From positions 13,873-77,872 of the IMG/VR virus record IMGVR_UViG_3300025869_000011: 64,000 nt of DNA, one strand, 5' to 3'. The DNA comes from a virus. The position numbers were made by a program, and so were the translations under genes. Shown here piece after piece: positions 1 through 59,237 of this stretch. Below the pieces are notes generated by a model that did no database searches, was not told the DNA's origin, and saw only the letters and a list, made by a program, of their open reading frames with translations. Each line of letters begins with the position of its first letter. The stretch's first letter is position 1.

Positions 1-303
1 TTTTATTCATTTCAGAACGAAAGAAACACAGATAGATCAAACATGTGGTTAACTTGTGCTTTATTAAAAGGAGAAGACAGACCAGAAGATCTTATATCAC
101 ATTTAGAAAAAGATAATATTGAAGCAAGAAGATTATGGAAGCCAATGCATGAACAGCCAGTTCTAAAAGGATATAGAAAATATATAAATGGAAATAGCTC
201 TTTATTATTTTTACAAGGTATATGTTTACCATCCGGTTCTAGTATGACTGACTCGGATTTAAAAAGAGTAATAAAGTCAGTAAAAACATTTTTTAATAAA
301 TGA
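1..303 (+). CDS. DegT/DnrJ/EryC1 family sugar aminotransferase, C-terminal part (5' truncated by window)
   Basis: NIEARRLWKPMHEQP and GICLPSGS are typical C-terminal motifs of this family; the frame is open from the window edge. Confidence 0.8.
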   Translation, partial: FYSFQNERNTDRSNMWLTCALLKGEDRPEDLISHLEKDNIEARRLWKPMHEQPVLKGYRKYINGNSSLLFLQGICLPSGSSMTDSDLKRVIKSVKTFFNK

Positions 304-1196
304 TAAATTTTGAAGAGTATAGATTATTAGAATCTTATATAGGTTCTAAAAATTTTGAAATTTTGTTGGAGAAAAATCTTTCTAATAAAATTGATAACAA
401 AATAAAATTCGGTATAGTAATGCCTACTCATAAAATATCTGATGGTGGTGCTCAGACAACTAGACAAAATCACATGACTACACCTAGTATATTAAAAGAT
501 TCTTTAACATCAATAAAAAATCAAAAGTATGATAATTATACGGTTTACTTAGTAGGTGATAAATATGATGGTGATGAAGAGATAAAGGAAGTAATGAATA
601 GTATTATCCCAAAGGGTAAATTAAAATATCATAACCTGTCATCACCTGGTGAAAGAGATAAAGGTTTTACAAAGCAACAATTTAGATATACTGCAGGTTG
701 CGGTGCAATGAATAAAGGTTTGCAAATGGCTAAGTCAGATGGGTGTGATTATATTGTTAGAATTGACCATGATGATAAGTGGACTCCTAATCACTTAGAG
801 CTTTTAGCAAAAGCATACACACAATATCCTGAATTGGCATATGTATTCACAAGAAGCCGTAAAAAGATAGACGCAACAAATAGCTCTAAGAAATATATGT
901 ACCAACCTAGGGACGAAAGGCATACTAATCTAATAGAACCAAATAATCTTGGTTATACTCATGGTGATGTTAGTCACTCTGCAGTTTCATGGAGACCTTC
1001 TATGTGTGGTGATTTAAGATATCGTGATGCCGACGCGCAATGTAATACCGAACCTAAAATATCTAAAGAAAAAACTAACCCAGCTGATGTTGACATGTTT
1101 AACAGAATGATGAAGGTTATAAAAGATAAAGGTCATAAGTATATGTACGTACCAAAACTAACAAGTTTCTATAGAAACAGAAAAGGTAAATTCTAA
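300..1196 (+). CDS. GT2-like (GT-A) glycosyltransferase with a possible head-targeting leader
   Basis: IVMPT, SLTSIKNQKY, MNKGL, RIDHDDKW (DxD) motifs; N-terminus MINFEEYRLLES. Confidence 0.75.
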   Translation: MINFEEYRLLESYIGSKNFEILLEKNLSNKIDNKIKFGIVMPTHKISDGGAQTTRQNHMTTPSILKDSLTSIKNQKYDNYTVYLVGDKYDGDEEIKEVMNSIIPKGKLKYHNLSSPGERDKGFTKQQFRYTAGCGAMNKGLQMAKSDGCDYIVRIDHDDKWTPNHLELLAKAYTQYPELAYVFTRSRKKIDATNSSKKYMYQPRDERHTNLIEPNNLGYTHGDVSHSAVSWRPSMCGDLRYRDADAQCNTEPKISKEKTNPADVDMFNRMMKVIKDKGHKYMYVPKLTSFYRNRKGKF

Positions 1197-1197
1197 T

Positions 1198-1210
1198 GAA
1201 TATATATAAA
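1198..1210 (+). promoter_or_regulatory. Putative late promoter (AATATATA class)
   Basis: GAATATATATAAA, a variant of the motif seen before structural genes. Confidence 0.5.
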
Positions 1211-1230
1211 AACAATAAAAAATAACTATT

Positions 1231-1407
1231 ATGGAAAAATTTGAAGAAATCAAGGCTCTTATCGAGTCAGTAAGTGAAGATGTAGATAAATTCTATGTAA
1301 AGGGAAATAAGGCAGCCGCCGTAAGAATTAGAAAATCAATGCAAGAAGTTAAAAATCTAGCACAAGAACTAAGATTACACGTCCAAGAGACTAAGAACAA
1401 TATGTAA
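1231..1407 (+). CDS. Histone H1-like protein, Hc1 family (58 aa, absent from the ORF track)
   Basis: Manual translation MEKFEEIKALIESVSEDVDKFYVKGNKAAAVRIRKSMQEVKNLAQELRLHVQETKNNM; KFY.KGNKAA..R.RK matches Bacteroidota/Chlamydia Hc1-like proteins. Confidence 0.8.
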   Translation: MEKFEEIKALIESVSEDVDKFYVKGNKAAAVRIRKSMQEVKNLAQELRLHVQETKNNM

Positions 1408-1425
1408 TCATACATAATCTTTTTT

Positions 1426-1459
1426 AAAAAAGACTATCTTTAATTAGATGGTCTTTTTT
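1426..1459 (+). terminator. Rho-independent terminator
   Basis: AAAAAAGACTATCT-loop-AGATGGTCTTTTTT hairpin with T tract. Confidence 0.75.
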
Positions 1460-1485
1460 GTTTGTATAATGCCCGGTTATACTTG

Positions 1486-1518
1486 AAACTTTTTTAAAAA
1501 CTTCTATATAATAATAAA
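1486..1518 (+). promoter_or_regulatory. Putative middle promoter AAAC-N17-TATAATAATAAA
   Basis: One of 12 copies with the same spacing upstream of DNA-metabolism genes. Confidence 0.65.
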
Positions 1519-1531
1519 TCAGTTAAATTAT

Positions 1532-2083
1532 ATGGAACGTTGCTTAATATTAGATTTTGATGATACTTTAGTTTCAACTATAGATACTCATGCAAATTCA
1601 TGGAAACTTGCTATAGAAAGAGTATTGAATAGGGATATACCTATTGAAACAATAATGTCTGATATTAATTACGGAATGGATGTTCTTTTAAAGAAATATC
1701 AATTAACTGAAGCTGAGTCCCAATTAGCACAAGATTACAAAAGAGAAATATTTTCAAAGAATCTTCATAAGACTAAAATAAATCAATTACTTTTGTGGAT
1801 AATTAAAAATTCTCAATTTGAAAAAGTTATTATAGCATCAAATTCATCTAGAGAAAATGTAGATAGAATTATGGCTTATCATAATATAAGTAATGAATTA
1901 TTTGATATGATTGTAACGAGGGATGATGTTTTAAATAAAAAGCCACACTCAGATATGGCAGATTTAATTTTTAAAACATTTCCTAAATATAATCCAGCTG
2001 ATTTTTTAATGGTTGGTGATTCAGAAGTAGATTCAACATTCGCACTTAAAAACAAAATGAAATGCATACTGGTAAAGTTTTAG
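1532..2083 (+). CDS. HAD-superfamily phosphatase
   Basis: LDFDDTLV motif I, SNS, KKP, MVGDSEVD. Confidence 0.85.
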   Translation: MERCLILDFDDTLVSTIDTHANSWKLAIERVLNRDIPIETIMSDINYGMDVLLKKYQLTEAESQLAQDYKREIFSKNLHKTKINQLLLWIIKNSQFEKVIIASNSSRENVDRIMAYHNISNELFDMIVTRDDVLNKKPHSDMADLIFKTFPKYNPADFLMVGDSEVDSTFALKNKMKCILVKF

Positions 2084-2808
2084 TAGGAAATAGTGGAGAT
2101 AGGGTATATCTTCAAGATAACAAAGTTATTAAAGAAGCTGGGGTTTATCCTATAAAGTTTAAGCAGCAAATGGATTGGTTAAAAAATTGTACCCATCCGA
2201 ATTTTATAAAGATTAATCCTATATCAGATACTTCATTTGAAATGAAAAAATACCCAACATGGTATGATAAAATCTGTGAACAGCCTTTAATTAAATCAAT
2301 TGACCAATTAGATGATCTTATTCATATTGTAAATGATTTTGATGGTTACGGTACTGATGTAGATACAAGATCTTATTTAGATAAATTAGAAGGTAGAACA
2401 GGTTATACTTATGAAGGTGAATTAGATGCATCGTCAGGCTGGGGGTTTGTTCATGGTGATTTAACAGTAAGTAATATCTTATATGATAAGGATTTTATTT
2501 TTATTGATCCACGAGGTACTGAAGAGCAGAATTATTATGACTATGGAAAACTGATGCAATCTTTTGTAATGAAATATGAGGCCCATATATACAATGAAAG
2601 GAATTCTAAATATCTTAAGTTCTGTAGGGAAGCAGAAAACATAATGTATGAATGGTATGACGAATACCAATTAAAATTCTTTTTAGCAGTTCACTTATTA
2701 GGAGCTGTTCCATTTTTTGAATTAAATGAAAGATATGAATTGGCAGGTATGTTCCTTAAGAAAGGGCATGAATTATTCGATGAATTAGAAATTAAATATA
2801 GCAAATGA
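2062..2808 (+). CDS. APH/choline-kinase-like phosphotransferase (putative sugar kinase)
   Basis: HGDLTVSNIL, FIDPRG, YYDYGKL motifs. Confidence 0.75.
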   Translation: MHTGKVLVGNSGDRVYLQDNKVIKEAGVYPIKFKQQMDWLKNCTHPNFIKINPISDTSFEMKKYPTWYDKICEQPLIKSIDQLDDLIHIVNDFDGYGTDVDTRSYLDKLEGRTGYTYEGELDASSGWGFVHGDLTVSNILYDKDFIFIDPRGTEEQNYYDYGKLMQSFVMKYEAHIYNERNSKYLKFCREAENIMYEWYDEYQLKFFLAVHLLGAVPFFELNERYELAGMFLKKGHELFDELEIKYSK

Positions 2809-3512
2809 GTAGAGTAAGAAAAGCAATTATCTTAGCAGCCGGGAGGTCTACTAGGTATGGATCAAATAAACTTATAGATCCAATTTTAGGAAAATCAACA
2901 ATTCAGTACTGTATTGAATTTTGTATTGAGAATGGAATAGAGGATGCATATGTTACTATAAGTAAATCTGACTTCTTTTTTAAAAATAGAAATACAAAAT
3001 TATCTCATCCTATTATTGAAAGTTTATCAAAGTATAAAGAAAAGATAAACATTTGTTATGAATTTCAGAAGGATGATGAATATGGACCAGGCGCTGCAAT
3101 TAAGGCATGGGAAGGTAAATTTTATGAACCTTTCTTATGTCTCTTTGGTGACAATTATTATCAAGGTAATATTGGTTTAGAATACCATGATCCTAATAAC
3201 ACTGTTGTTACTTATAAGGATTATGAAACTAGAGCAAGAAATTTACAACTTGCTACTATCCTAGAAGATGTGGTTATTGAAAAACCGCATGGTGTAGTAA
3301 GCGGTAGATATTTTTGCGGATATATGATATTTGGTAAAGAGGCATTTGATAACTTAAGTAGTATTAAATTATCAAACAGAAATGAATATGAAATTACTCA
3401 TCTTATAAACTCGATGGATAATTTAAAATTTGAAGAATTAAATATATGTTGGTATGATTTAACATACGAACAAGATAAACAAGTAATAGAAGATATTATT
3501 CAAAATTGTTAA
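2805..3512 (+). CDS. Sugar-1-phosphate nucleotidyltransferase (RmlA-like)
   Basis: ILAAGRSTRYG..NKL, LFGDN, IEKP, RNEYEIT. Confidence 0.85.
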   Translation: MSRVRKAIILAAGRSTRYGSNKLIDPILGKSTIQYCIEFCIENGIEDAYVTISKSDFFFKNRNTKLSHPIIESLSKYKEKINICYEFQKDDEYGPGAAIKAWEGKFYEPFLCLFGDNYYQGNIGLEYHDPNNTVVTYKDYETRARNLQLATILEDVVIEKPHGVVSGRYFCGYMIFGKEAFDNLSSIKLSNRNEYEITHLINSMDNLKFEELNICWYDLTYEQDKQVIEDIIQNC

Positions 3513-3513
3513 T

Positions 3514-4779
3514 ATGAAAGAGAATGTAAAAAAGATTGGTTTTTTTAAATTAGGTAAAGCCATAAAGTTTAATGAAAACAGTTGGAGCGCAATCGGTGGT
3601 GATTGTGAACCTAAGCAATTAATTTGTTCAATTGCAAACAGAAATCCTAATATCGAATATTGGCTATTAAGCCCAAATGATTTAGGTAAGTTTAGAGCAA
3701 AACAAAAACCTAAAGTAAATTCTTTATTCGGCCCACCGCAAACAGATGAACCTATAGTTCCTAATAATATTAAAGAATTTCATTCTACTATGAAAGAGAG
3801 AAAGTCTACTGATGAAACTGTTGAAATTATTCAAGGTTTAGATTTAGATTTTATTTTCTTTTATACTGGTCCAACAAGTACTGTTAATATTCCAGAGTAT
3901 ATCAACAAGAAGGATGGTACTGGTCAAGTTAAATCGTTGGATTTCTTTAAGTATTATGCAGCTCCAATTATTAAAGCGATGAATGAATTGGAAAAGAAAG
4001 TTCCTATTGTAGGTTTACTTGTTGATAACCGATATGTTCTTGCGTGTAAGGATTGGAGTATAAATAATAGACCAACCTATTACTTAGCACAAAATACATT
4101 TACTAAAGAAGAACAATATTTCTGTAATCCACCACTGAGAGATGTTAAAACAATTACATCTACATATGAATATTCAGGTATTGAAACAGTATTTCTTTTA
4201 GATAAGAAAAGATATGATACTGATGAATTATTTAAAATGAAAAAGACCAATTCATTTATGATGCTACAGAATCAAGGTAAAGGTTCAGGTGGAATGGATC
4301 GTTGGGATCCAGTAAAAGAATACATTGTTGATCAAGAAATAGAAACTGATATCTATGGTAAATGGGATGATGAGATTAAAGAAAAGTATCCTAAATGGTT
4401 TAAAGGAGAAACTAGAATCGAAACAATGACCGATGAATTACTCGGTACTAAATATACATTCTGTGTACCTATTAAAGAAGGTATGGTAACCTCTAAGTAT
4501 GCTGAAATGCTACACTATGGTATTATACCTTTCTTACACCCATCTTACGATACTGACTTTAATGTATTCCCTGAAGGTCATTTTATTAGATGTAAATCAG
4601 CAGAAGATTTAAAAAAGAAAATTGAATTCTTAAATGCAAACCCGGAGCATTATAAGAAATTATTTTATAACCTACAAGAAAAGTATCTTAAGGATTCTTA
4701 TTATACTGGAGAGCATGTAGATAACAAGATCTGGGAATCTTATGAAAGAGTAACTAAAACTGAAACCGTAAATGTATAA
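3514..4779 (+). CDS. GT-B glycosyltransferase resembling T4 DNA beta-glucosyltransferase
   Basis: C-terminal half (DIYGKW...VTSKYAEML...PFLHPSYD...FIRCKSAEDLKKKIEFL) parallels the BGT nucleotide-sugar domain; sits in a sugar/DNA-methylase cluster. Confidence 0.55.
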   Translation: MKENVKKIGFFKLGKAIKFNENSWSAIGGDCEPKQLICSIANRNPNIEYWLLSPNDLGKFRAKQKPKVNSLFGPPQTDEPIVPNNIKEFHSTMKERKSTDETVEIIQGLDLDFIFFYTGPTSTVNIPEYINKKDGTGQVKSLDFFKYYAAPIIKAMNELEKKVPIVGLLVDNRYVLACKDWSINNRPTYYLAQNTFTKEEQYFCNPPLRDVKTITSTYEYSGIETVFLLDKKRYDTDELFKMKKTNSFMMLQNQGKGSGGMDRWDPVKEYIVDQEIETDIYGKWDDEIKEKYPKWFKGETRIETMTDELLGTKYTFCVPIKEGMVTSKYAEMLHYGIIPFLHPSYDTDFNVFPEGHFIRCKSAEDLKKKIEFLNANPEHYKKLFYNLQEKYLKDSYYTGEHVDNKIWESYERVTKTETVNV

Positions 4780-5794
4780 TTCTGAAACAAAAATCCTAGT
4801 CACCGGTGGTGCTGGGTTCGTTGGTACAAATTTTATCAATGATTTATTAAATAGAGGACATAATCCTAAATGTATTGCAGTGATCGATAATATGGAACAC
4901 GGTACTTATATACCTAAAGTCCATGATCAAATTGAAAATTTTCATAAAGTAGATATTAGAAATCAATATGTAGAAAACATTATTCAGGATTTTGCACCTG
5001 ATTATGTTTATCACTTCGCTGGCTTGGTTTCTATTTATGACTGTCATGAAGATCCATACGAAGCTGTAGATAATAATATCTTAGGAAGTATTAATGTAAT
5101 GAATGGTTGTGTAAAGGCAGATGTAAAAAGAATTATCTTTAGTGAAACTTCTGCTGTATATGAAAATTGTGAAATGCCTAAAGAAGGGTTTAACGAGAAT
5201 CAATCTGATCCTACTACAATTTATTCTACAACTAAAGCATGCCTTGCCTTATTAGCAGAATCATACCAGAGAACTAAAGGTTTAAATTATACTGCATTGA
5301 GATACTTTAATGTTGCTGGGCCACTTCAAGACTATAATAGAACCATACCTCCTGTATTCGCTGGATTTATTTTAAGAATTAAAGGTAATCATAATCCTAT
5401 AGTGTTTGGTGATTATATGAAGGCAAGAGATTATATTGATGTATCTGATGTTAATGCATTCCACATTCTTTGTATGGAAAATGAAGATACCGCAAACCAA
5501 ACCTTTAATTTAGGAACCGGTAAAATGACAAATCTAATGGATCTTAAAAATATGATTGGTGATATTATGGGAGTTGGTGAACCTGTGTTTGATCATTACG
5601 ATCCGATTGCAGGTGAGGCTTTAAATATCAGAGGGGATATCTCCAAAGCTAAATCGATGGGATGGGAACCTAAAAAAGATATAAGAGATACTATAAAAGA
5701 AACTATTGTTTATCTTGAAGAAGAAATTAATCAAGGTACAATTGACCCTTTAACTTTTATGGAAGATTTAGAAATTGAAAAAGTAAAAATATAA
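4772..5794 (+). CDS. NAD-dependent nucleotide-sugar epimerase/dehydratase (GalE-like SDR)
   Basis: TGGAGFVG, YSTTK (YxxxK), LRYFNVAG, RDYIDVSD. Confidence 0.9.
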   Translation: MYNSETKILVTGGAGFVGTNFINDLLNRGHNPKCIAVIDNMEHGTYIPKVHDQIENFHKVDIRNQYVENIIQDFAPDYVYHFAGLVSIYDCHEDPYEAVDNNILGSINVMNGCVKADVKRIIFSETSAVYENCEMPKEGFNENQSDPTTIYSTTKACLALLAESYQRTKGLNYTALRYFNVAGPLQDYNRTIPPVFAGFILRIKGNHNPIVFGDYMKARDYIDVSDVNAFHILCMENEDTANQTFNLGTGKMTNLMDLKNMIGDIMGVGEPVFDHYDPIAGEALNIRGDISKAKSMGWEPKKDIRDTIKETIVYLEEEINQGTIDPLTFMEDLEIEKVKI

Positions 5795-5795
5795 T

Positions 5796-7058
5796 ATGGA
5801 AAAAGAATTAAAATGGGGTACTATAATTCCACTGATTGGTGGTAGTGCTATAGGATGTAAAAAATCTGCAGGTAACGAACCTGCATTTCATTTAAGTTAT
5901 GATGCGTTTGCTGCTAATGAAAGTCATATTGAAAAATATTGGCCTGATGTACCTATGTATAGGTTAGATCATGAAGATTTAGAAATTCCTAAACAAACCT
6001 TTAACGAAGTAGATTATGTAAATTCAGTTTGTCCTTGTGCAGGGTTATCACAATTAAATTCTGCAAGAGGAACGTCTGCTTCTCGTGGATCTGGTGCTAC
6101 TCAAAATCAATGGATGTATAATTCATCAGAATATATTTTAGAAAACGTAAAACCTAAAGTACTTTGGGGTGAGAATGCACCTGGTCTTTTTACTAAGATG
6201 GGAGAAGGTGTTGTTGACAGGTTAAGAGAAATAGGCGAAAAATATGGCTATAGTTTTTCTTTAATTAAAACAAACACCGAGCTTCATGGAATTCCACAAA
6301 GAAGAATGAGAACTTTTTATTTCTTTTGGAATACACCAACTGTACCTATGTTAAGTTGGAAATTCAGAGAAAAGAAATTACTAATTGATTATCTTAATGA
6401 AATTCCTAAGGATGCTACACACCAAGATATGTTTATGGTTGAAGGTAAAGTCACAGATCATTTTACACCTTATGAATATGTTTTAGAAAAGGAAGGTTTA
6501 ACTCATGCTGAATTTGCTGCAAAATTTAAAAAAGGAACTATTGCACAGTACTTAGAAAAAAATGAACTTATTGATGACTGTATTAAATGGTTAGAAAAAC
6601 ATTATCCTAAAAGAGGGTTTTCAAATAAAAAATCTACAAAGACTTTTATTGATATGTTAGAGCACCAACAATATAAAACAAGTCAAGGATTAGGTTATTG
6701 GGATGCATCCCCGCATTTCTTTCACGATTCTTTTTCTGCTCTTATTGGTAGAAATATGTTTAATGGTGTACACCCAGTAGAAAACAGATATCTTAATGTT
6801 AGAGAAATGCTTCACTTAATGGGACTTCCTTTAGACTTCGGTATTGAAAGCTCAAGACAAGTAAATCATATTGCTCAAAATGTACCTGTTACAACTGCTA
6901 TGGATATGGCTGATGAGGTAAAGAAATTTTGTAAAGGCGAGGCTAAGATGACTAATTTTACATTTCTGAAACAAGATAACACAAGTCATAAAATTATTGA
7001 TTCTGTTGAAATTGGATCAGAACCTAAAAAGAAATATAAAGTAAAAAGTATAATTTAA
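5796..7058 (+). CDS. DNA cytosine-C5 methyltransferase-fold protein with atypical SAM-binding motif
   Basis: PC motif (VCPCAGLS), ENA (motif VI), PQRRMR (VIII), RYLNVREMLHLMGLP (IX); motif I reads IPLIGG instead of FxGxGG. Confidence 0.75.
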   Translation: MEKELKWGTIIPLIGGSAIGCKKSAGNEPAFHLSYDAFAANESHIEKYWPDVPMYRLDHEDLEIPKQTFNEVDYVNSVCPCAGLSQLNSARGTSASRGSGATQNQWMYNSSEYILENVKPKVLWGENAPGLFTKMGEGVVDRLREIGEKYGYSFSLIKTNTELHGIPQRRMRTFYFFWNTPTVPMLSWKFREKKLLIDYLNEIPKDATHQDMFMVEGKVTDHFTPYEYVLEKEGLTHAEFAAKFKKGTIAQYLEKNELIDDCIKWLEKHYPKRGFSNKKSTKTFIDMLEHQQYKTSQGLGYWDASPHFFHDSFSALIGRNMFNGVHPVENRYLNVREMLHLMGLPLDFGIESSRQVNHIAQNVPVTTAMDMADEVKKFCKGEAKMTNFTFLKQDNTSHKIIDSVEIGSEPKKKYKVKSII

Positions 7059-7060
7059 TT

Positions 7061-8065
7061 ATGAAAGATAACGCATTAGCAATAGGAATATCTAGTTTAG
7101 AGTTTACCAATATCTTATGTAGTTATTATCCTAAAGGGATCAAAGAAAATTTTGATATTTACTTATTTGTTGATAATAATAAAATAGACATAGATAAACT
7201 TCAGTGCATTTTTAAAGAGCATGATTTAGATATTTTTATTAATGCTAAAATTATTATCTTAAAGGATGTATATGATCATTATATAGAAAAGCATCAATAT
7301 AAAGGTAATGCAAAAAAGTTTCTATTAAATCATGGTTGTTTATTTAAAATTCTAATGCCTATTTATCTAAGAGAAATGTTTGGTGTTAAAAGAACATATG
7401 TTTCCGATGATGATGTATTTATCCTAAATGATCTCAGTTATATGTGGACTAAATATAAAGAGTTCGGTATTAAGAAGGAAAACTTATTTTACATTAGAAA
7501 TAAAAATAAGTATGATGTAATGAATGCCTTCAATGAAATATTTGAATCTGATTTTACTTTGGATCAAATGAATGGTCTAGCAATAAATGCAGGTAATATT
7601 ATTTATGACGAAGACCCTAAGTTAGAATATTACTTTGAGCGGTTTATGAAGCACCCATTTATTCATCATATGTTTTTTGATTTTACAGGTTATACGAGCT
7701 GGACAGTAGAACAGAGGTTTCATCATTTTAATATTCATAGATATTTAGCAGAAGGAAAGGAAGTTAAATTTTTAGAAAGTAAAGACTTAAGACTAATGCA
7801 AAATCTTGATAAAGATATGAAGGCTGGTGAGCCACCTGAAAAATATTTAAAAGAAGTCGTACCATCCTTAATCCATTATGCAATAGGCACAAAAAAACCT
7901 TTATGGTTAAATGATTTTTTACCAGGTCTTAAATGGAGATATGGTTTTGACTATAAGGCCAAATATGAATTAAAGGATATTCTATATAATAAAGATTGGC
8001 GACCACCATCCTTTAAAAGTGTACAGAAAAAACAAACAGCATTAAAAATTAAGTCTGTATTTTAA
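7061..8065 (+). CDS. GT8-like (GT-A) glycosyltransferase
   Basis: YVSDDDVFIL (DxD), INAG, EQ, LIHYAIGTKKP motifs in GT8 order. Confidence 0.6.
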   Translation: MKDNALAIGISSLEFTNILCSYYPKGIKENFDIYLFVDNNKIDIDKLQCIFKEHDLDIFINAKIIILKDVYDHYIEKHQYKGNAKKFLLNHGCLFKILMPIYLREMFGVKRTYVSDDDVFILNDLSYMWTKYKEFGIKKENLFYIRNKNKYDVMNAFNEIFESDFTLDQMNGLAINAGNIIYDEDPKLEYYFERFMKHPFIHHMFFDFTGYTSWTVEQRFHHFNIHRYLAEGKEVKFLESKDLRLMQNLDKDMKAGEPPEKYLKEVVPSLIHYAIGTKKPLWLNDFLPGLKWRYGFDYKAKYELKDILYNKDWRPPSFKSVQKKQTALKIKSVF

Positions 8066-8068
8066 CTT

Positions 8069-8101
8069 AAACTAAGTAACAATAATCAATATAATAATAA
8101 A
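8069..8101 (+). promoter_or_regulatory. Putative middle promoter AAAC-N17-TATAATAATAAA
   Basis: Conserved bipartite motif before the sliding clamp gene. Confidence 0.65.
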
Positions 8102-8116
8102 CAAATAATATTTTAA

Positions 8117-8866
8117 ATGGAAACAAAAATTAACAAAATTGACGGTTATGAATTAAGTTCATTCGTTCGCAAACTACTTCCAATTGACAAATTCATCTTT
8201 ATGAAAATCGCAAAAGAAGGTACTGTATCTTCTGTATATTTTCCTGAGAGAGATGCCGTAAAATTGGTTAACACTCCAACTGCTGATATCTTTGATGCTG
8301 ATATCTCTGAACCTGTAAAGGTAAGCTTTTATAATGGTACTAAAGTTATTGATGCATTAAGTCATTTTAATGGTGATGTCCAAGGTCGTATTAAGTATAC
8401 TGAATATGATGGAGAATTAATGGCAAGTGATTTTATTTTAGAAAATGAAGATCTTCAAATTAATTTGGCATGTACAGATCCTTCATTATCTTTTATGGAA
8501 ATGAGCAAGGAAGAAACTGATAGAGCATTCGGTACAGATTCTAAAATGTTTAGTTTTGATTTACTTACTACTCATGTAGATAAAATGAAATCATTATTTA
8601 ACTTAGATAAAGATGAAGATATCTTTACTCTTTATATAGGAGAAAAAGGTATTAATATTAAAGGTACTTCTTATGATGCTACTTTATGCCACTCTTATGA
8701 TTCAGATGTAGAAAAAGGTGCAAAAGTTGTAATTTATAAAAAGTATATTAATCTTTTAGATAAGGAAAATTACAAAGTAAGCGTTTGTGAAAATAAGGTT
8801 GTATTTAAATCTTTAGATACTAATACACATCTTACTGTTGCTGTTGCTATTACTGACGAGGATTAA
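8117..8866 (+). CDS. gp45: Sliding clamp (gp45/PCNA-like)
   Basis: Size of 249 aa, acidic two-domain pattern, C-terminal YKVSV...VVF...TVAVA like gp45; adjacent to the polymerase. Confidence 0.6.
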   Translation: METKINKIDGYELSSFVRKLLPIDKFIFMKIAKEGTVSSVYFPERDAVKLVNTPTADIFDADISEPVKVSFYNGTKVIDALSHFNGDVQGRIKYTEYDGELMASDFILENEDLQINLACTDPSLSFMEMSKEETDRAFGTDSKMFSFDLLTTHVDKMKSLFNLDKDEDIFTLYIGEKGINIKGTSYDATLCHSYDSDVEKGAKVVIYKKYINLLDKENYKVSVCENKVVFKSLDTNTHLTVAVAITDED

Positions 8867-8881
8867 TACTGCATCTAATTA

Positions 8882-8913
8882 TTTAAAGGGCATCATAATC
8901 GGTGCCCTTTAAA
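8882..8913 (+). terminator. Stem-loop/terminator overlapping the next promoter
   Basis: TTTAAAGGGCATC-ATAATC-GGTGCCCTTTAAA inverted repeat. Confidence 0.6.
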
Positions 8914-8943
8914 CTTTCTTTAATCTTACCGTATAAAAATAAA
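8911..8943 (+). promoter_or_regulatory. Putative middle promoter AAAC-N17-TATAAAAATAAA
   Basis: Conserved motif directly before the polymerase-half gene. Confidence 0.65.
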
Positions 8944-8944
8944 A

Positions 8945-10063
8945 ATGACAGAGGAATTACAAAAAATTAACGAAGAGGCATCTAAGTTTTATAATTATGA
9001 ACAGGCAGTTAAGTTAATGCTTAACTCTATTTACGGCGCATTTGGTAATCCTTATTTTTATTTCTTTAATGTTGATATTGCTGAAACTATTACACTCCAA
9101 GGTAAAGATGCAATTTTATATACCGAACAATTAGTTAATAAGTATTTTAAAGAGTTTTGGCATAAAGATCTACCAGCTCACGCTGCTATGGGTATTACTG
9201 TAACAGGTAAAATTGAAAAACCAGTAGGTATTTATATTGATACAGATTCAGTGTATGTTAAATTTGATGAAGTAATTCAAAAGTCGGAAGGCTGGAACGG
9301 TGATGAAAAAGAATTTATACTTAAGCTTTATAAGGTTAGGTTAAATGGTTATATAGAAAAGATTCTACAAAAATATGCAGACGATAATAATGCAGAAAAC
9401 TTTTTATCTTTTGAATTAGAAAGTATTGCTAAAAATGCAATATGGTTGGCAAAGAAAAAGTATATGCAGAATATAGTTTGGAAGGATCCGGATATTCACT
9501 ATGATGATCTTTCTAAAATTAGTTCAAAAGGATTTGAAATCATTCAGTCATCTACTCCTATTTTTGCAAGAGAAAAATTAAAAGAACTATTAACTTACAT
9601 ATTTTCTGTAAGTGAATTAGATATGGGAGCATTTGCATCTTTGCTTAAGGATGTTAAAAGACAATTTAGATTAGCAAATGTTGATCAAATCAGTTTTTCA
9701 AGAAAGGTTAATAATTATCAAAAGTATATTGTAAATGATTATGAACAATTTGAGATCGCATCAAAATGCCCAATCGGCGTAAGATCTGCAGGTTATCATA
9801 ATTACTTATTAAACAATTCAGGCAAAAAAGGTAAATACCAACCATTAGGAAACGGGGAAAAATGTAAAATGTATTTTTCTGAAGATAATTCCTGTGATGT
9901 ATTTGCATATGCACCTGGAGATTATCCTTATGAATTCGCGCCTAAGATTGATTACGATCGACAATTCGAAAAAACAATATTAGATCCTATAAACAGAGTT
10001 GTTACTGCTATGGGATTTAAGGGATTCAATAGAAACTTGATTTATACTACAAGTTTATTTTAA
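8945..10063 (+). CDS. gp43: Family B DNA polymerase, C-terminal subunit only (split gp43)
   Basis: KLMLNSIYGAFGN (motif B), YIDTDSVY (motif C), KKKY; no exonuclease domain or DxxSLYPS motif A. Confidence 0.9.
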   Translation: MTEELQKINEEASKFYNYEQAVKLMLNSIYGAFGNPYFYFFNVDIAETITLQGKDAILYTEQLVNKYFKEFWHKDLPAHAAMGITVTGKIEKPVGIYIDTDSVYVKFDEVIQKSEGWNGDEKEFILKLYKVRLNGYIEKILQKYADDNNAENFLSFELESIAKNAIWLAKKKYMQNIVWKDPDIHYDDLSKISSKGFEIIQSSTPIFAREKLKELLTYIFSVSELDMGAFASLLKDVKRQFRLANVDQISFSRKVNNYQKYIVNDYEQFEIASKCPIGVRSAGYHNYLLNNSGKKGKYQPLGNGEKCKMYFSEDNSCDVFAYAPGDYPYEFAPKIDYDRQFEKTILDPINRVVTAMGFKGFNRNLIYTTSLF

Positions 10064-10076
10064 AAAAAATTATGTT

Positions 10077-12936: not shown

Positions 12937-13216
12937 TACTGCAAAACTTAAAGTAAAGCATGTATTAGGAAATCATACAACATTACCAACTTACCCAGAC
13001 GCTGAAGATATTACGTATGAACTGATACGAGATTATTGTGGTAAAGTAGCAAAGGAAATTAAATTTACTAATGTATCTTTACAGAAAAAGTACAGCCTTA
13101 CTGATGAAAAGGTTAATGAAATTTTAATGACTCTTAAAAAGAAAAAGATTATTAAAGTATCATTATCTAATTCTGCATATACTACATACGAAATTATTAC
13201 AAATCCATATGAATAA
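12917..13216 (+). CDS. Hypothetical protein (possible winged helix)
   Basis: ORF overlapping both neighbours, normal codon usage. Confidence 0.5.
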   Translation: MLPKNLNTAKLKVKHVLGNHTTLPTYPDAEDITYELIRDYCGKVAKEIKFTNVSLQKKYSLTDEKVNEILMTLKKKKIIKVSLSNSAYTTYEIITNPYE

Positions 13217-13976
13217 GCATGACTTAAGATTTAAAGAAACTCGCGGTGTTAAATTCATATGTGATGTTCATGATATGATGGGCCAACAGATATTAGGTGA
13301 TCAAGGATGGGAGCTTCATTTAGAAGATGTCTATAAAAAAATAATACTTAATGACTTTACTATTATTGATGTAGGTGCTAATATTGGTTGGCATACAGTT
13401 CAGTTTGGATTGCTAGGTAAAGAAGTGCATGCATTTGAACCAGTAAAATCTAATTTCTATAATCTCTGTGGTAATGTTGTTGTTAACAATTTAAGTGATA
13501 AGATTACTTTATATGAAGAAGCATTAAGTAATAAACCAGAGTTACTAGGTATTATTAATCAAGAAGATTTTTATGAAAATCCATTATGGTCACATAATAC
13601 AAAGGAATTGGTATTTAATAATTGTGGCGGTATTGCATTAGGAAATACTGATAATAGTAATATGACTGCTAATACATTGGATAGTTTTTCATTCGCACCA
13701 ACTTTAATTAAAATAGATGTTGAAGGATTTGAGCTTAAGGTTTTACAAGGTTCTATGAAAACTTTAAATAATCATAAGCCAATTGTTTTAATTGAACTTC
13801 ACCCCAAAAATACTGATAATGAATCCATAAAGACAATTCTCTTATCATTAGGTTATAAGATGTATTTAATACCTAACTCATATAATACATATCAGCATTA
13901 TGATTATTTAGCTTACCATGATGATACTAAACATGGTAAATTTGTTCAAAGGCTTATAGATTTAAACAAAATATAG
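13209..13976 (+). CDS. FkbM family SAM-dependent methyltransferase
   Basis: IDVGANIGWH, AFEP, LIKIDVEGFELKVLQG. Confidence 0.9.
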   Translation: MNKHDLRFKETRGVKFICDVHDMMGQQILGDQGWELHLEDVYKKIILNDFTIIDVGANIGWHTVQFGLLGKEVHAFEPVKSNFYNLCGNVVVNNLSDKITLYEEALSNKPELLGIINQEDFYENPLWSHNTKELVFNNCGGIALGNTDNSNMTANTLDSFSFAPTLIKIDVEGFELKVLQGSMKTLNNHKPIVLIELHPKNTDNESIKTILLSLGYKMYLIPNSYNTYQHYDYLAYHDDTKHGKFVQRLIDLNKI

Positions 13977-54841: not shown

Positions 54842-54955
54842 ATGATGGAATTTTTAGAGTTCACATTTAGTTCTATTTGGCATTTTCTTGGTATCCTAAT
54901 TTTAATAGGAGTAGTCGGTAGCATAATTCCTAATATTAACATTAATAAAAAATGA
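54842..54955 (+). CDS. Small single-TM membrane peptide (37 aa, absent from the ORF track)
   Basis: MMEFLEFTFSSIWHFLGILILIGVVGSII...; ATGA overlap with the next gene. Confidence 0.5.
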   Translation: MMEFLEFTFSSIWHFLGILILIGVVGSIIPNININKK

Positions 54956-55431
54956 ATAAAATAATTTTAGTAGGTAAAGGTGCTGCTGGTAAAGATCATA
55001 TGAGAAAAATTCTTAGTGGTAGAGGTTTTCAGTATGGTATTTCATACACGACTCGACCTCCTAGGGATGGTGAAATTGATGGTAAGGATTATTTCTTTTT
55101 AACAGAAGAAGATTTTAAAAGAAAAATCAATCAAGGGTATTGGTATGAATGGATAGAATTTAATGGATGGTATTATGGTACAAGCCAAAGACAGTTTACT
55201 ATAAGCTGTAACCTTTTTATTATGACACCTAAAGGTATAAGTCATATTGACCCTGTAGATAGAAAAGAATGTACAATAATCTATCTTAATGTAGATGAAA
55301 AGATTAGGCGTAATCGATTAATTAAAAGAGAAATGCCTGGTGATTCAATAGACAGGAGAATGATTGCAGATGCAAAAGACTTTAAAGATTTTACAGATTT
55401 TGATATTGAAATAAACAATTCTACTTTTTAA
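54952..55431 (+). CDS. Guanylate kinase-like NMP kinase
   Basis: GKGAAGKD, SYTTRPPRDGEIDGKDYFF, WYYGT. Confidence 0.88.
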   Translation: MNKIILVGKGAAGKDHMRKILSGRGFQYGISYTTRPPRDGEIDGKDYFFLTEEDFKRKINQGYWYEWIEFNGWYYGTSQRQFTISCNLFIMTPKGISHIDPVDRKECTIIYLNVDEKIRRNRLIKREMPGDSIDRRMIADAKDFKDFTDFDIEINNSTF

Positions 55432-55449: not shown

Positions 55450-56049
55450 ATGAGCAAATTTATTATCATTGAAGGTACAGATAATACAGGTAAAGATACC
55501 CAGCAAAATCTAATTATTGAAAAATTACATAACCTAGTCTTTCATAAGCTTCACTATTCTTCATTACCTTTTAAAGATGATGTAGAAAAACATGTTAATT
55601 ATTCTACTAAAATGTATAATGATATGTTTAAAATGATGGTAAATAATAAAGATGCTGATATTAATATGATTTTTAATAGATCTCATTTAGGTGAATCTGT
55701 TTACTCTCCTCTTTATAGAAATTATTCAGGTGATTATATTTTTAATATTGAAAAAGAGTATGTTAATCAACTAAGAAAAGAATTATATTTAATTACCTTA
55801 ACTAATGATCCTCATACAATTTTAAAACGAGATGATGGCAAATCATTCTATGGTAATGAAGAAGAAGTTAAAGCCGAAGTTGATGGATTTAACAGAGCTC
55901 ATAGATTAAGTAAGATTAAAAATAAACTAAATATTAATATAGGTACAATGAGCGCAGATGAAGTATCTCATATCATAATTGATTTTCTAAAACATGAAAA
56001 TTCTATTAGTGGTGTTGCTGAACAACTAAATATGTTTACTGATGTGTAA
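55450..56049 (+). CDS. Thymidylate-kinase-like dNMP kinase
   Basis: IIIEGTDNTGKDT P-loop, FNRSHLGE.VY. Confidence 0.75.
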   Translation: MSKFIIIEGTDNTGKDTQQNLIIEKLHNLVFHKLHYSSLPFKDDVEKHVNYSTKMYNDMFKMMVNNKDADINMIFNRSHLGESVYSPLYRNYSGDYIFNIEKEYVNQLRKELYLITLTNDPHTILKRDDGKSFYGNEEEVKAEVDGFNRAHRLSKIKNKLNINIGTMSADEVSHIIIDFLKHENSISGVAEQLNMFTDV

Positions 56050-56227
56050 AGCAGAAGATTTATTATACGAGGCTCACCATGAAGGTATTAGAGATGAGGT
56101 TCTTGCTGAGAGCCGTCGATTATATCAGGATAAAAAGAAGTATGAACACATGGAGTTTGGTGATAGAATAGAAATAGCACTAAGAAATGTTAGAGAGAAT
56201 AAATTACAAAGTAAATTAAAAAAATGA
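56042..56227 (+). CDS. Hypothetical protein
   Basis: Overlapping ORF in operon. Confidence 0.5.
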   Translation: MCKAEDLLYEAHHEGIRDEVLAESRRLYQDKKKYEHMEFGDRIEIALRNVRENKLQSKLKK

Positions 56228-57135
56228 GAGTATTTAAAGGAGAGACTTTTGCAGAAGCATACAACTATGCTCTAAGTAGTATTATACATAATCCTACATA
56301 CATATCATCCCCTAGAGGTATGAAGATATTTGAAATGACTGATGCAGCGATCGTTGTAGAAGATCCTACATATTGTCTTTATGAAAATGATCGTAGGAGT
56401 AGTCAATTTAAATATATTGCAGCAGAATTGGTTTGGTATTTTACTGGCCGTAATGATGCTGACTTTATTACACCGTATGCAAAGTTCTGGGATCAAATTA
56501 AAAATAAAGACGGTACTGTTAACTCTGCTTATGGTAATCTTATCTTTACCGAAGAATTAGAAGATGGTCGTAATCAATATCGATGGGCATTAGATTCCTT
56601 AATTCAAGATAAAGATTCAAGGCAAGCAATTATACATTTTAATAAGCCCTCTCATCAATGGAATGGAAATAGAGATTTTGTTTGTACTCTTAATGGCATA
56701 TTTCAAATAAGAGATAATAAATTAAACTTTACTATTGATATGAGATCTAACGATCTTATATTAGGTACTCCTACTGATGTTGCATTCTTTTGTCTTTTAC
56801 AAATTCAAATGTTAGAGCATCTTCGTAATCATTACCCTGAATTAGAATTAGGTACATATACTCATATTGCACATTCGCTTCATTTATATGAAAGGCACTT
56901 CGATCTTGCAAGCGAGATGTTAATGAAATCGTTTAATCCTCAATCATTTCCAAATATGACAGAGTTTTTAATTGATCCTAACGGTAAATCATTAGATGGT
57001 TTAAAACAATTAGAAGATGAAATGATTCAGAGTAATGATGTTGTATTTAAAGGAAAATCTAATTTTGAACCACAACCTCATGATGATCTTTTACATCAGT
57101 GGATATCCGACGCAATTTTTAATAAAGCCCTTTAA
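56224..57135 (+). CDS. Thymidylate synthase-family enzyme of the dCMP hydroxymethylase (gp42) type
   Basis: VNSAYG, DSRQA, DFVCT, MRSNDLILGTPTDV (Asp at the nucleotide-specificity position), SLHLYERHF. Confidence 0.75.
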   Translation: MRVFKGETFAEAYNYALSSIIHNPTYISSPRGMKIFEMTDAAIVVEDPTYCLYENDRRSSQFKYIAAELVWYFTGRNDADFITPYAKFWDQIKNKDGTVNSAYGNLIFTEELEDGRNQYRWALDSLIQDKDSRQAIIHFNKPSHQWNGNRDFVCTLNGIFQIRDNKLNFTIDMRSNDLILGTPTDVAFFCLLQIQMLEHLRNHYPELELGTYTHIAHSLHLYERHFDLASEMLMKSFNPQSFPNMTEFLIDPNGKSLDGLKQLEDEMIQSNDVVFKGKSNFEPQPHDDLLHQWISDAIFNKAL

Positions 57136-57138
57136 AAG

Positions 57139-58011
57139 ATGGTAATAGATACCTTTTTATATTATAATGAAATAGAATTACTTGAATTAAGACTCAAGGT
57201 TCTCTATGACTACGTTGATCGCTTTGTAATAGTAGAAGGTGATCATACACACAAGGGGGATCCTATCCCCTTTAGGGCTAAAAATGATCTTAAGAAACTA
57301 GGATATGAAAATGATAGAAAGATACATGTCATCGAAGTAAACCTTAAATCTTTTGATGAAGAACCGGATCCTTGGAAAAGATCGGATCGTGCTAGGAATG
57401 CACAAGCTAGCATATATTCTGACGATGATGATATAGTTATTATTGCAGATATAGATGAATTATGGCATCCTCATTATTTACAACAGCATGTAAGATATTT
57501 AAACGAAAACCCAACTCATGTTTTAATTAATAGATGTTGGGATTTACAAGGCCAAGTTGATTTAGGACTATATGCCAAACATAATAATGAATGTAATTCT
57601 AATGCACCTTTATTTGCCAAAGGTTCTTTTTGGAAAAAACATTCACCAGCTTCTGCTAGGTGGATATGCGGTTGGGGTGGTAATAAAAAAGATTTTCCTT
57701 TTGAAGTTAATTGGTTTACTGATGTTAAGAAGGGGTGGCATCTTTCTTATATGGGAAATGTTGAAAGAAAGTTATCTAAAATTAATACATCATGTCATTG
57801 GGATGATGAATGGGTTCCAGGTATTTCTTTCGAATCAGATTATACAAAGAACCGCTTTAAGAATTTTAATGGTAAACCTTTAACAGATGGTAGAGATTTA
57901 TTAGGTAGAGAAAATTTTTATATTAAGCCATTTGATTACACTGATCTTTTTGATACGATTGGTGACGGCTCAGATCATTTAAAAGATTGGTTATTAGGTA
58001 GAAATATATAA
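57139..58011 (+). CDS. GT17-like glycosyltransferase
   Basis: NEIELLELRL, VDRFVIVE...THKG, IADIDE, GWHLSY. Confidence 0.75.
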   Translation: MVIDTFLYYNEIELLELRLKVLYDYVDRFVIVEGDHTHKGDPIPFRAKNDLKKLGYENDRKIHVIEVNLKSFDEEPDPWKRSDRARNAQASIYSDDDDIVIIADIDELWHPHYLQQHVRYLNENPTHVLINRCWDLQGQVDLGLYAKHNNECNSNAPLFAKGSFWKKHSPASARWICGWGGNKKDFPFEVNWFTDVKKGWHLSYMGNVERKLSKINTSCHWDDEWVPGISFESDYTKNRFKNFNGKPLTDGRDLLGRENFYIKPFDYTDLFDTIGDGSDHLKDWLLGRNI

Positions 58012-58028: not shown

Positions 58029-59237
58029 TTGAAGTATCTAAAATTATTTGAACAATTCCTAAATGAAAAGAAACCTAAAGGAGCACCAGACTTCCATCAT
58101 TCTGATGCACCTGATGCTGAAGGTAGATTTAAAGATCTTTCTATAAAAGATTTAGCCGCATGGTTAATTAAAACTAGAAAGAAAGATGTTAAAAAAATTA
58201 GTGGTTCTTTAACTCAGCAAATAGTTTTTAACAGAAAGAGTGACCCTAAGTATGCTGAAAAGATGGAGAAAACTAGAAAAGAAGTATATAAACAATTAGG
58301 TAGAGAAGATTTATTAAAAGAATCTGCTGATACTGAAAATGGTCTAGGCAAAGTTTATTTAGCATTAAGAGAAGATAGTGGACAAAGATGGTGGACTTAT
58401 AAAGGTTTTGCTGGAAATAAATTTTTTGTACAAGTTCATGAAAACAATATGAATGACATTGATATTAATCCAGACTATCCAGTTTTAACCTATCATTCAG
58501 ATACAGTTAATAAACTAATAAAGGCTGGTAAGATTAAAAAAGAAAATGTTTATAATCACCCAGACCACATATCAAAATCTGGATCTAAGGAAGAATTCCA
58601 TAAACTGGTTGGAGAAGATGAAAATATACCTAAGACAGTATATTCTAAGAATGATGCATTAGAGCAATTAGAATTTCCTATTATTGCAAAACCTGCAGAA
58701 GGTCATAGTGGAGAAGGTATTCAAATAATAGAAAAGCCAGATTTAATGGAAGAGGTGGACGAAAAGATTTTTGATACCTTTTCAGAATACATTGACAAGG
58801 CAGAAGAACATAGGTTTATAAACTTTAAAGGAAAGCCGATTTTTTGGATGGAGAGAACTCCTATAAATGAAAAGGCTAAGTCCGGTAAAGGTAGTGCTAA
58901 AGAAGCTATGGAGTTTGGATATGCTAAAAGAAATATTAAAGATTTACCTAAAGATTATAAAAAAGTATTAGAGAAGTTTTGTAAGATTTATGAAGATTTG
59001 CCTTATATGTGTTTTGATGTTATGAAAGGTAAAAATGGAAAGGTCTATATTATTGAATCCAATGCTCAGCCTGGAGTACCTTTTGATTCTACTATTGAAG
59101 CTTATAAACATATCTATGAAGATTTTTATAAGAAATCTCTTGACGAAGAAAGTTTAACTAAATTAAATGAATATGCTAAAACTATGATTGAAAAGACTCT
59201 TAAAAAAGATGGGGGCAAAAGATTTTCAATTAAATAG
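58029..59237 (+). CDS. ATP-grasp (RimK-like) ligase with capsid-targeting-like leader
   Basis: IPKT, FPIIAKP..GHSGEGI, EYID...EHR, FDVM, IIESNAQPG; TTG start after late motif at 58003; N-terminus MKYLKLFEQFLNE. Confidence 0.7.
   Translation: MKYLKLFEQFLNEKKPKGAPDFHHSDAPDAEGRFKDLSIKDLAAWLIKTRKKDVKKISGSLTQQIVFNRKSDPKYAEKMEKTRKEVYKQLGREDLLKESADTENGLGKVYLALREDSGQRWWTYKGFAGNKFFVQVHENNMNDIDINPDYPVLTYHSDTVNKLIKAGKIKKENVYNHPDHISKSGSKEEFHKLVGEDENIPKTVYSKNDALEQLEFPIIAKPAEGHSGEGIQIIEKPDLMEEVDEKIFDTFSEYIDKAEEHRFINFKGKPIFWMERTPINEKAKSGKGSAKEAMEFGYAKRNIKDLPKDYKKVLEKFCKIYEDLPYMCFDVMKGKNGKVYIIESNAQPGVPFDSTIEAYKHIYEDFYKKSLDEESLTKLNEYAKTMIEKTLKKDGGKRFSIK

Follow-up and report, generated by a model that had tools for sequence, protein, structure and literature searches.

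In the 64,000-nucleotide stretch analysed here (the window: bases 13873-77872 of the linear 77.9-kb IMG/VR virus record IMGVR_UViG_3300025869_000011), seven genes at positions 1532-8065 form a conserved operon that probably glycosylates modified cytosine in phage DNA. The likely reading is a pre-replicative 5-hydroxymethylcytosine (5hmC) pathway followed by post-replicative glycosylation with an activated sugar made by the phage. It builds on observed folds, homologies, gene linkage across deep divergence, active-site signatures and C-terminal tails shared between proteins. A preliminary description had listed the genes as HAD phosphatase, APH-like kinase, sugar-phosphate nucleotidyltransferase, GT-B glycosyltransferase (GT) resembling T4 beta-glucosyltransferase (BGT), epimerase of nucleoside-diphosphate (NDP) sugars, C5-methyltransferase (MTase)-family enzyme and GT8-like transferase; families, folds and motifs upheld all seven identities (Table 1). 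It had also proposed that the phage makes its own activated sugar and aims its transferases at cytosine modified with the help of a synthase encoded at 56224, and this is supported by fold, linkage and the gp42-type signature of that thymidylate synthase (TS) homolog.

The phage is an uncultured, abundant marine T4-like virus. CheckV estimated the record to be ~28% complete, and the G+C content of the window is ~30%. Its replication proteins share only 31-35% identity with their counterparts in T4-like cyanophages and a pelagiphage, but 59% with those of an uncultured 462-kb phage. Close homologs of the operon proteins are plentiful in marine data sets, Tara among them, where the contigs reach ~219 kb, and hundreds of IMG/VR contigs contain the cassette; a blastn search with the operon as query matched none of 50,697 phage records.

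For comparison we used a close set of 38 related IMG/VR contigs and a distant set of 40 viral loci (GT-B identity 31-36%), 78 in total, which were screened with a fixed set of query proteins. This synteny survey confirmed the operon as a real and conserved unit of tightly coupled genes: in the 38 close relatives the order HAD, kinase, nucleotidyltransferase, GT-B, epimerase, MTase was fixed. The MTase gene lay at most 3 kb downstream of the GT-B gene in all 78 loci examined, and in 40/40 distant loci it followed directly or behind a second GT-B gene. Between the two genes there was nothing, the epimerase, a second GT-B or, in two rearranged cassettes on contigs of metagenome-assembled genomes (MAGs), HAD and AfhE-like genes. 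Upstream of GT-B, the distant loci encode either a small HAD protein and a nucleotidyltransferase-kinase fusion of ~500 amino acids, or a SIS/HAD fusion together with an epimerase; in one distant clade, too, the epimerase gene stands directly 5' of GT-B. Where enough upstream flank was available, a TS homolog was found 2-4 kb upstream, often with a thymidylate-kinase (Tmk)-like gene, and the distant cassettes are often flanked by the family-B DNA polymerase (PolB) upstream and UvsX downstream. Three loci (L168, L169 and L171) hold the same gene set in other orders, which speaks for a link by function and not just by inherited order. In seven loci (L088, L090, L093, L096, L108, L115 and L119) a SIS/HAD-type fusion of ~350 amino acids plus the epimerase replaces the AfhE-like fusion, and this clade suggests that the same GT-B/MTase chassis works with another sugar.

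Cultured phages contain parts or all of the set. In Pseudoalteromonas phage XG4 (vB_Psh_XG4, PP712099) the genes run TS, small HAD, fusion, GT-B, second GT-B, MTase. Enterococcus phage 9183, for which we found no literature on its DNA modification, has a partial set (Tmk, TS, dUTPase, HAD, fusion, GT-B). Within 16 kb, Bacillus phage G encodes the MTase, two T4 alpha-glucosyltransferase (alpha-GT)-like proteins, kinase, HAD, nucleotidyltransferase, Tmk and TS. In Synechococcus phage S-CBWM1, a nucleotidyltransferase and kinase of the same type are coupled to a SIS protein and a TAGT-family DNA glycosyltransferase.

The GT-B protein (421 amino acids) had been likened to BGT, and structure comparison of a model built from 63 diverse homologs agreed. 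T4 BGT chains took ranks 1-6 in Foldseek (best E 4.8e-11) and the top four ranks in VIA-align (Z 22.0-22.7, rmsd 3.6, 317/344 residues aligned), followed by GT4 enzymes (Z 20.2 or lower), T4 alpha-GT (18.6) and, at rank 35, the HY126 GT (9iqz, Z 16.5). As modelled, the likeness to the T4 BGT family is one of fold only. Profile comparison of the family with RB69 gp47 and gp46 by hhalign gave probabilities of 0.2% and 0.1%. A full HMMER scan yielded 381 cluster representatives; viral-contig scans with the single distant representatives P0186, P0187 and P0190 found none. Because the alignment of 63 sequences (A2) was too divergent for a pattern scan, one of 12 sequences (A3) was used instead, and it retrieved 343 relatives in IMG/VR versus 4 in a cellular comparison set of one genome per species (185,579 prokaryote species). 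Three of these four are phage cassettes on MAG contigs. The GT-B family is uncharacterised and almost wholly viral.

A second cluster ~47 kb downstream of the operon encodes guanylate-kinase-like, Tmk-like, TS-homologous, GT-A and ATP-grasp proteins. Relatives retain both kinases and the TS homolog, and on several contigs the two clusters occur together. The assignment of the gene at 56224 to a dCMP-type synthase was borne out, its product being predicted: the best matches in the PDB were the CMP hydroxymethylase MilA (9.6e-23) and T4 dCMP hydroxymethylase (3.9e-22), with E. coli ThyA at ~4e-11. The catalytic Cys lies in DFVCTL, MRSND places an Asp in the D169 column of ThyA and TPTD an Asp in the N177 column. 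Every cassette TS homolog, that of the window included, has the catalytic Cys and Asp in the columns of ThyA residues 169 and 177, as in T4 gp42. The RB69 enzyme reads MRSQN, with Asn in the 169 column; it makes 5-hydroxy-dCMP, and Asn at 169 is the signature of 5-hydroxycytosine (5hoC) synthesis (PMC13326640). A 5hoC synthase was accordingly rejected as identity of the window's TS homolog, which has Asp rather than Asn at this column. The Tmk-like protein, a candidate kinase of 5-hydroxymethyl-dCMP, matched RB69 gp45 (BLASTP 2.4e-4) and the Tmk-like proteins of phages G and 9183, and its homolog adjoins the TS homolog in distant cassettes. Just 5' of the N-terminal half of PolB, at L001 (C1):5652-6146, a MazG-like nucleoside-triphosphate pyrophosphohydrolase is encoded (phrog_173, 6.8e-18), a candidate dCTPase.

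Sugar supply was analysed by comparison with the Afh pathway, in which AfhE phosphorylates arabinose-5-P at C1, AfhF takes off the 5-phosphate and AfhE then forms UDP-arabinose (PMC13326640). The profile of the operon kinase (248 amino acids), which had no match in a Pfam search, aligned to residues 264-494 of AfhE-like fusions (hhalign 97%, E 1e-10), and that of the nucleotidyltransferase to residues 6-248 (98.7%); HAD served as the negative control in this profile-profile comparison. Against RB69, the kinase reached 93.9% with gp52 and the nucleotidyltransferase 77.5% with gp53. Kinase homologs were also found in phage G (gp311) and S-CBWM1 (gp13), and the nucleotidyltransferase is 38% identical to S-CBWM1 gp12. 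By sequence, the two proteins correspond to the C-terminal and N-terminal halves of AfhE in split form. The HAD protein is homologous to phage G gp310 (BLASTP 1.4e-9), and its profile did not match the small HADs of RB69, XG4 and 9183 (probability 1-7%); it would thus take the AfhF role as a member of a different HAD subfamily. The epimerase scored 5.2e-39 with NCBIfam galE, under the equivalog cut-off, and its best PDB matches were 4zrm (2.3e-40) and 6dnt (4.3e-39), the substrates of the closest solved relatives being UDP-hexoses and UDP-HexNAc. The SIS isomerase family had no match in the 77.9-kb contig, which represents ~28% of the genome; a host isomerase could also do this step. The sugar, not nameable from sequence, is probably self-supplied and other than glucose.

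The C5-MTase-family enzyme has intact catalytic motifs IV, VI, VIII, IX and X (VCPCAGLS, ENAPGL, PQRRMRTF, RYLNVRE and AQNVP), the Asn of motif X being retained. The family profile matched 3g7u (8.2e-16), HaeIII (4.8e-15) and 8yf3 (4e-12) in the PDB, and in the ESM atlas only viral DNA_methylase clusters were hit. Motif I reads PLIGG instead of FxGxGG across the whole family, and the Glu of motif II is not evident, SYD/ND.H standing in its place. Homologs in S-TIM5 and phage G likewise co-occur with dCMP-type TS homologs, and the S-TIM5 genome has its homolog without any GT. A carboxymethyltransferase of the CmoX type was rejected, since the protein has VCPC instead of SPPC and, with QNVP, keeps Asn rather than Arg at the position of HhaI N304. 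No TET/JBP gene (PF12851) was matched in the contig, which is incomplete, and the query set for the related loci held no TET/JBP sequence; as the TS homolog is the expected source of 5hmC, the MTase would probably not be required for making the hydroxymethyl handle.

For the MTase gene alone, an ordinary S-adenosylmethionine-dependent, fork-tethered C5 methyltransferase, acting as a second anti-restriction layer on cytosines that escape 5hmC replacement or lie in a specific motif, comes close to being an even prospect. The Pfam match far above its cut-off, the intact motifs with the Asn of motif X, the profile matches to bona fide MTases at 1e-15 and the S-TIM5 homolog in a genome with no GT all fit an ordinary methylase, whereas the family-wide PLIGG and the unclear motif II Glu do not. 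Linkage to a BGT-like GT and a dCMP-type TS homolog in nearly all loci, rearranged ones included, would be unexpected for a backup methylase, and the candidate dCTPase would leave little cytosine. It is rather unlikely that the MTase-fold enzyme uses its Cys-C6 activation for other chemistry on 5hmC or glycosyl-hmC, or works with another cofactor, on nascent DNA; if it does, a widespread group of ocean phages has a cytosine modification not yet described. Such a role would fit its near-constant pairing with the BGT-like transferase, its polymerase-type tail in many lineages and its altered motif I, in genomes expected to have 5hmC in place of cytosine. The further modification step that had been suggested for this enzyme is conjectural.

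Polymerase and modification enzymes share C-terminal peptides. In distant loci PolB ends in SLEDFF, TLEEFF or TLEDFF, and in the same or sister loci GT-B and MTase end in TLEDFFA, GLESFF, TLEEFFA or LDEFF; in a lineage whose polymerase ends in ALDDW, GT-B ends in GLDDW or ELDDW and the MTase in W. Among non-redundant open reading frames (ORFs) of the distant loci, a polymerase-type tail (TLE[ED]FF or LDDW) was present in 6/7 PolB, 18/27 GT-B and 19/30 MTase proteins and absent from HAD (0/24), AfhE (0/21), TS (0/20), epimerase (0/6), UvsX (none) and all 306 other ORFs; no formal P value is given for these counts because the pattern was written after seeing the data. Both the contrast and the co-variation between lineages are clear. 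In the lineage of the window, the polymerase ends in SLF (YTTSLF), the GT8-like protein in KS[VL]F and the MTase in KVxS[TI][FI] (KVKSII in the window, KVxSTF in relatives), and 24 of the 26 members of the GT8-like family end in [VLI]F. SLF-like ends were also seen in the large subunit of topoisomerase II (50960-52837, KSLF), a TnsA-like endonuclease (21993-22472, SKLF) and a 165-amino-acid protein (15298-15795, RKLF).

The polymerase C-termini of T4-like phages such as T4 and RB69 bind the sliding clamp. T4 alpha-GT binds the gp45 clamp as well (PMC13216743). Since the modification enzymes, and not the sugar-pathway enzymes, share the polymerase's C-terminal peptide in a form that co-varies between lineages, the tails suggest replisome-tethered modification, with clamp binding putative. 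The operon had been placed next to clamp and polymerase genes. PolB does lie downstream, but only as the C-terminal half of a split enzyme; the N-terminal half is encoded at C1:6169-7575 (L001), ~16 kb away, and the split arrangement is conserved in relatives. The label clamp for the protein encoded at 8117-8866 is putative: no sequence match to gp45 was found, Pfam and PDB searches by sequence or family profile were negative, and none of 120 homologs contained a Pfam domain. A weak lead from the ESM atlas, a cluster with gp45-slide_C in 10% of its members, leaves it a candidate.

By this reading, the TS homolog would convert dCMP to 5-hydroxymethyl-dCMP, which the neighbouring Tmk-like kinase and host enzymes would bring to the triphosphate, while the MazG-like pyrophosphohydrolase may remove dCTP, and the split PolB would then place 5hmC in phage DNA. 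By analogy to AfhE and AfhF, the APH-like kinase would phosphorylate C1 of a sugar phosphate, HAD would remove the distal phosphate, the nucleotidyltransferase would form the NDP-sugar and the GalE-like enzyme would epimerise it. The BGT-like GT-B would move the sugar onto 5hmC in DNA, and the accessory GT8-like enzyme may add a second sugar or glycosylate other hmC residues. The C5-MTase-family enzyme would also act on nascent DNA. DNA is taken as the target because of the BGT-like structure, the viral range of the GT-B family, the gene linkage, the TS signature and the C-terminal tails.

Several points weigh against this pathway. In the lineage of the window the TS homolog is ~50 kb away from the operon, and GT-B lacks a polymerase-like tail. 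The BGT match leads the GT4 folds by only ~2 Z units; a Pfam search of the contig for T4-Gluco-transf (PF09198) found no match, and a sequence search of the PDB with GT-B returned no chain. A C5-MTase would make little sense in a genome in which 5hmC fully takes the place of cytosine. The tail pattern was defined post hoc, the clamp gene is a candidate only, and no cultured phage other than XG4, whose record is unannotated, has the full cassette. The chemistry throughout, the identity of the sugar and the occurrence of 5hmC in virions are inferred. Finally, neighbouring genes for KdsA, a PglF-like dehydratase, an aminotransferase, GT2 and FkbM show that the phage may also build glycans that are not attached to DNA.

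The last point leads to a different target, a virion protein, the host envelope or teichoic acid/lipopolysaccharide, in which case the operon would be another auxiliary cluster like the KdsA/PglF/aminotransferase/GT2 block upstream of it. The operon adjoins this variable glycan-type block, enzymes that make cell-surface glycans typically have GT8 and GT-B/GT4 folds, the untailed GT-B of the window would suit such a role, and ~65% of phage GT contigs lack a base-modification gene as neighbour (Pyle et al., 10.1101/2023.12.21.572611). We nevertheless regard a non-DNA glycan as improbable: BGT is the top structural match, the GT-B family is almost absent from cellular genomes and steadily linked to dCMP-type TS homolog, Tmk-like kinase and C5-MTase across rearranged cassettes, GT-B and MTase have polymerase-type tails in other lineages, and a terminator and a separate promoter part the operon from the upstream block.

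A true Afh pathway leading to arabinosylated 5-hydroxycytosine, as in RB69, DLP3 and HY126, seems highly improbable. It would account for the AfhE-equivalent kinase and nucleotidyltransferase, the HAD phosphatase and the RB69-like position in the replication module, and a Gram-negative host could supply arabinose-5-P, which is also a substrate of the phage's own KdsA. The TS homolog, however, has Asp at the D169 column, while the published 5hoC signature is Asn (PMC13326640). The 78-kb contig (~28% complete) gave no SIS isomerase match, the GT-B family lacks profile similarity to RB69 gp46/47 (probability 0.2%), the HAD is of another subfamily, and the epimerase is not part of the Afh pathway.

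The GT8-like protein (334 amino acids) was assigned at the fold level only, Pfam by sequence giving no match. Its model matched XXYLT1 (2.5e-8), glycogenin and LgtC in the PDB (Foldseek, TM 0.41-0.55), and the top match in BFVD was a GT8 family protein; BFVD returned generic GT8 only and no known DNA glycosyltransferase such as TAGT. Sequence search of the PDB gave nothing useful, and tblastn against phages no match. The DDD motif is present, with D116 and D118 conserved. The gene occurs in 23/38 close relatives and is missing from 15/38; it is therefore accessory, and the disaccharide proposed from the presence of two transferases is conjectural.

Table 1. Coordinates in the window of the operon, its boundaries and the downstream cluster.
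Feature	Position	Strand	Evidence and remarks
Terminator-like hairpin	1425..1460	+	15-bp stem then T run; closes upstream glycan gene block
Sigma70-like promoter, TTGAAA-18-TATAAT	1483..1512	+	11/12 matches, best site in 1-10200; consensus match only
HAD-superfamily sugar-phosphate phosphatase	1532..2083	+	PF13419 2.4e-21; intact DxDxT and GDxxxD
APH/protein-kinase-like sugar kinase	2062..2808	+	HGDxxxxN motif (HGDLTVSN) and IDP
Sugar-1-phosphate nucleotidyltransferase	2805..3512	+	NCBIfam Arch_glmU 1.9e-16, rmlA_long 1.4e-13
GT-B glycosyltransferase, candidate DNA 5hmC glycosyltransferase	3514..4779	+	model pLDDT 92.6
NAD-dependent NDP-sugar 4-epimerase-like SDR, GalE type	4772..5794	+	PF01370 2.4e-46
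C5-cytosine DNA methyltransferase-family enzyme	5796..7058	+	PF00145 5.8e-19, 69.1 bits vs cut-off 22
GT8-like GT-A glycosyltransferase	7061..8065	+	model pLDDT 86
Conserved 249-aa protein, candidate sliding clamp	8117..8866	+	present in all relatives; probably last gene of unit
Strong terminator-like hairpin	8882..8913	+	13-bp stem, 5 GC pairs; ends unit
C-terminal half of split family-B DNA polymerase	8945..10063	+	PF00136 2.4e-19, phrog_1918 1.3e-66; ends YTTSLF
Guanylate-kinase-like nucleotide kinase	54952..55431	+	PF00625 2.9e-20; phrog_1815; conserved beside TS homolog
Thymidylate-kinase-like dNMP kinase, candidate 5hm-dCMP kinase	55450..56049	+	phrog_761 1.8e-16
TS homolog, gp42-type dCMP hydroxymethylase signature	56224..57135	+	PDB matches and signature residues
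GT-A glycosyltransferase, GT17/GT2-like	57139..58011	+	PF04724 3.2e-15; only in closest relative, L124
ATP-grasp ligase	58029..59237	+	PF14398 7.4e-7; N-terminal part variable among relatives

The seven ORFs fill positions 1532-8065 on the plus strand, and neighbours overlap by 4-22 nt or lie 1-2 nt apart. In the place of the middle promoter that had been named for the operon, a sigma70-like consensus site (1483-1512) was seen behind a terminator-like hairpin (1425-1460). The tight coupling that had been claimed is thus real, whereas the transcription unit probably comprises eight genes instead of seven, with the ORF at 8117-8866 being the last, because the next strong terminator comes only after it. 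Between the PolB halves are encoded both ribonucleotide reductase subunits, KdsA, a PglF/PseB-like dehydratase, an acetyltransferase, a DegT aminotransferase, GT2 and, after these, the operon; downstream of the operon and the C-terminal half of PolB follow a UvsX-like recombinase and a DnaB-like helicase. The upstream block of KdsA, PglF/PseB-like dehydratase, acetyltransferase, DegT aminotransferase and GT2 (L001:10724-14175 and window 300-1196) is divided from the operon by the terminator and is variable: L007, L008, L011 and L016 lack the three middle genes and have GT2 swapped for a 56% variant. A 58-amino-acid ORF just 5' of the operon (window 1231-1407) is 79-100% identical in all relatives and has no family match. 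Between the UvsX-like and DnaB-like genes, at window 13209-13976, lies an FkbM-type methyltransferase gene (PF05050, 4e-20); enzymes of this family often methylate sugars. The ATP-grasp ligase of the downstream cluster may elaborate the modification further or play no part in it.

Whether a phage genome can be read by restriction enzymes, CRISPR nucleases and sequencing chemistries depends on DNA hypermodification. The cassette defines an uncharacterised family of BGT-like, putative DNA glycosyltransferases with a self-supplied, probably non-glucose sugar. That modification enzymes share the C-terminal peptide of the polymerase goes beyond cataloguing and suggests tethering to the replisome. 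The main unexplained point is a C5-MTase-like enzyme tied to a pathway that should leave no substrate for an MTase.

Phage C5-MTase folds within hypermodification clusters are represented by CmoX of Synechococcus phage S-B43 (PMC12783734), which our family profile matched as 8yf3. CmoX has SPPC, Arg for HhaI N304 and the motif I Phe, in contrast to (C/P)PC, QNVP and PLIGG in the present family, and no CmoA partner was seen in the cassettes. The pentose-cytosine system of Shewanella phage Thanatos (PMC12838424) also comes from an aquatic T4-like phage and includes a TS homolog, an AfhE-like protein of 561 amino acids and an NDP-pentose pyrophosphorylase; its TS homolog, unlike ours, has D169N and made 5hoC (PMC13326640), and a C5-MTase partner is not reported.

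The genetic map of T4 reads 43-42-beta-gt-uvsX in this region, and the Afh cluster of RB69 lies between gp43 and uvsX. With the glucosyl-hmC system of T-even phages (gp42, gp1, gp56 and alpha- and beta-glucosyltransferases) the locus shares a TS with the dCMP hydroxymethylase signature, a BGT-like GT-B and the pol-uvsX position in the replication module, and alpha-GT with gp45 provides a precedent for a clamp-tethered GT (PMC13216743). It differs in a GT-B outside PF09198, in the TS homolog 50 kb away in this lineage and in the extra GT8-like enzyme and C5-MTase-like partner; while T4 takes host UDP-glucose, the operon has its own sugar-activation genes (HAD, kinase and nucleotidyltransferase) and an epimerase. 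Common to the locus and the Afh systems of RB69, DLP3 and HY126 are kinase and nucleotidyltransferase, here split and in reversed gene order, the HAD phosphatase step, the Tmk-like kinase, GT-B transferases and the place beside the polymerase. Unlike in these systems, the TS homolog lacks D169N, no arabinose-5-P isomerase was found in the contig, the HAD belongs to a different subfamily, the GT families show no relationship in profile comparison, and epimerase and MTase are added.

Linkage of GT-B genes to those for ThyS, epimerase, APH, methyltransferase and clamp is already on record in the survey of Pyle et al., in which experiments also showed that pairs of GT and epimerase glycosylate 5hmC (10.1101/2023.12.21.572611). 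The present locus resembles these clusters in its ThyS-associated GT-B neighbourhood and in a sugar supply that would depend on an epimerase; the clusters tested there combine a methyltransferase with TET and form 5hmC post-replicatively, whereas no TET was found in our incomplete contig. Judged by sequence, the locus fails the defining tests of both the BGT family and the Afh pathway. The initial view that it matches no known pathway has nevertheless to be given up, as the kind of system is already known from three sources, T4 glucosyl-hmC, Afh (PMC13326640) and the survey of Pyle et al., of which the operon appears to be a variant with a split AfhE and a BGT-like transferase.

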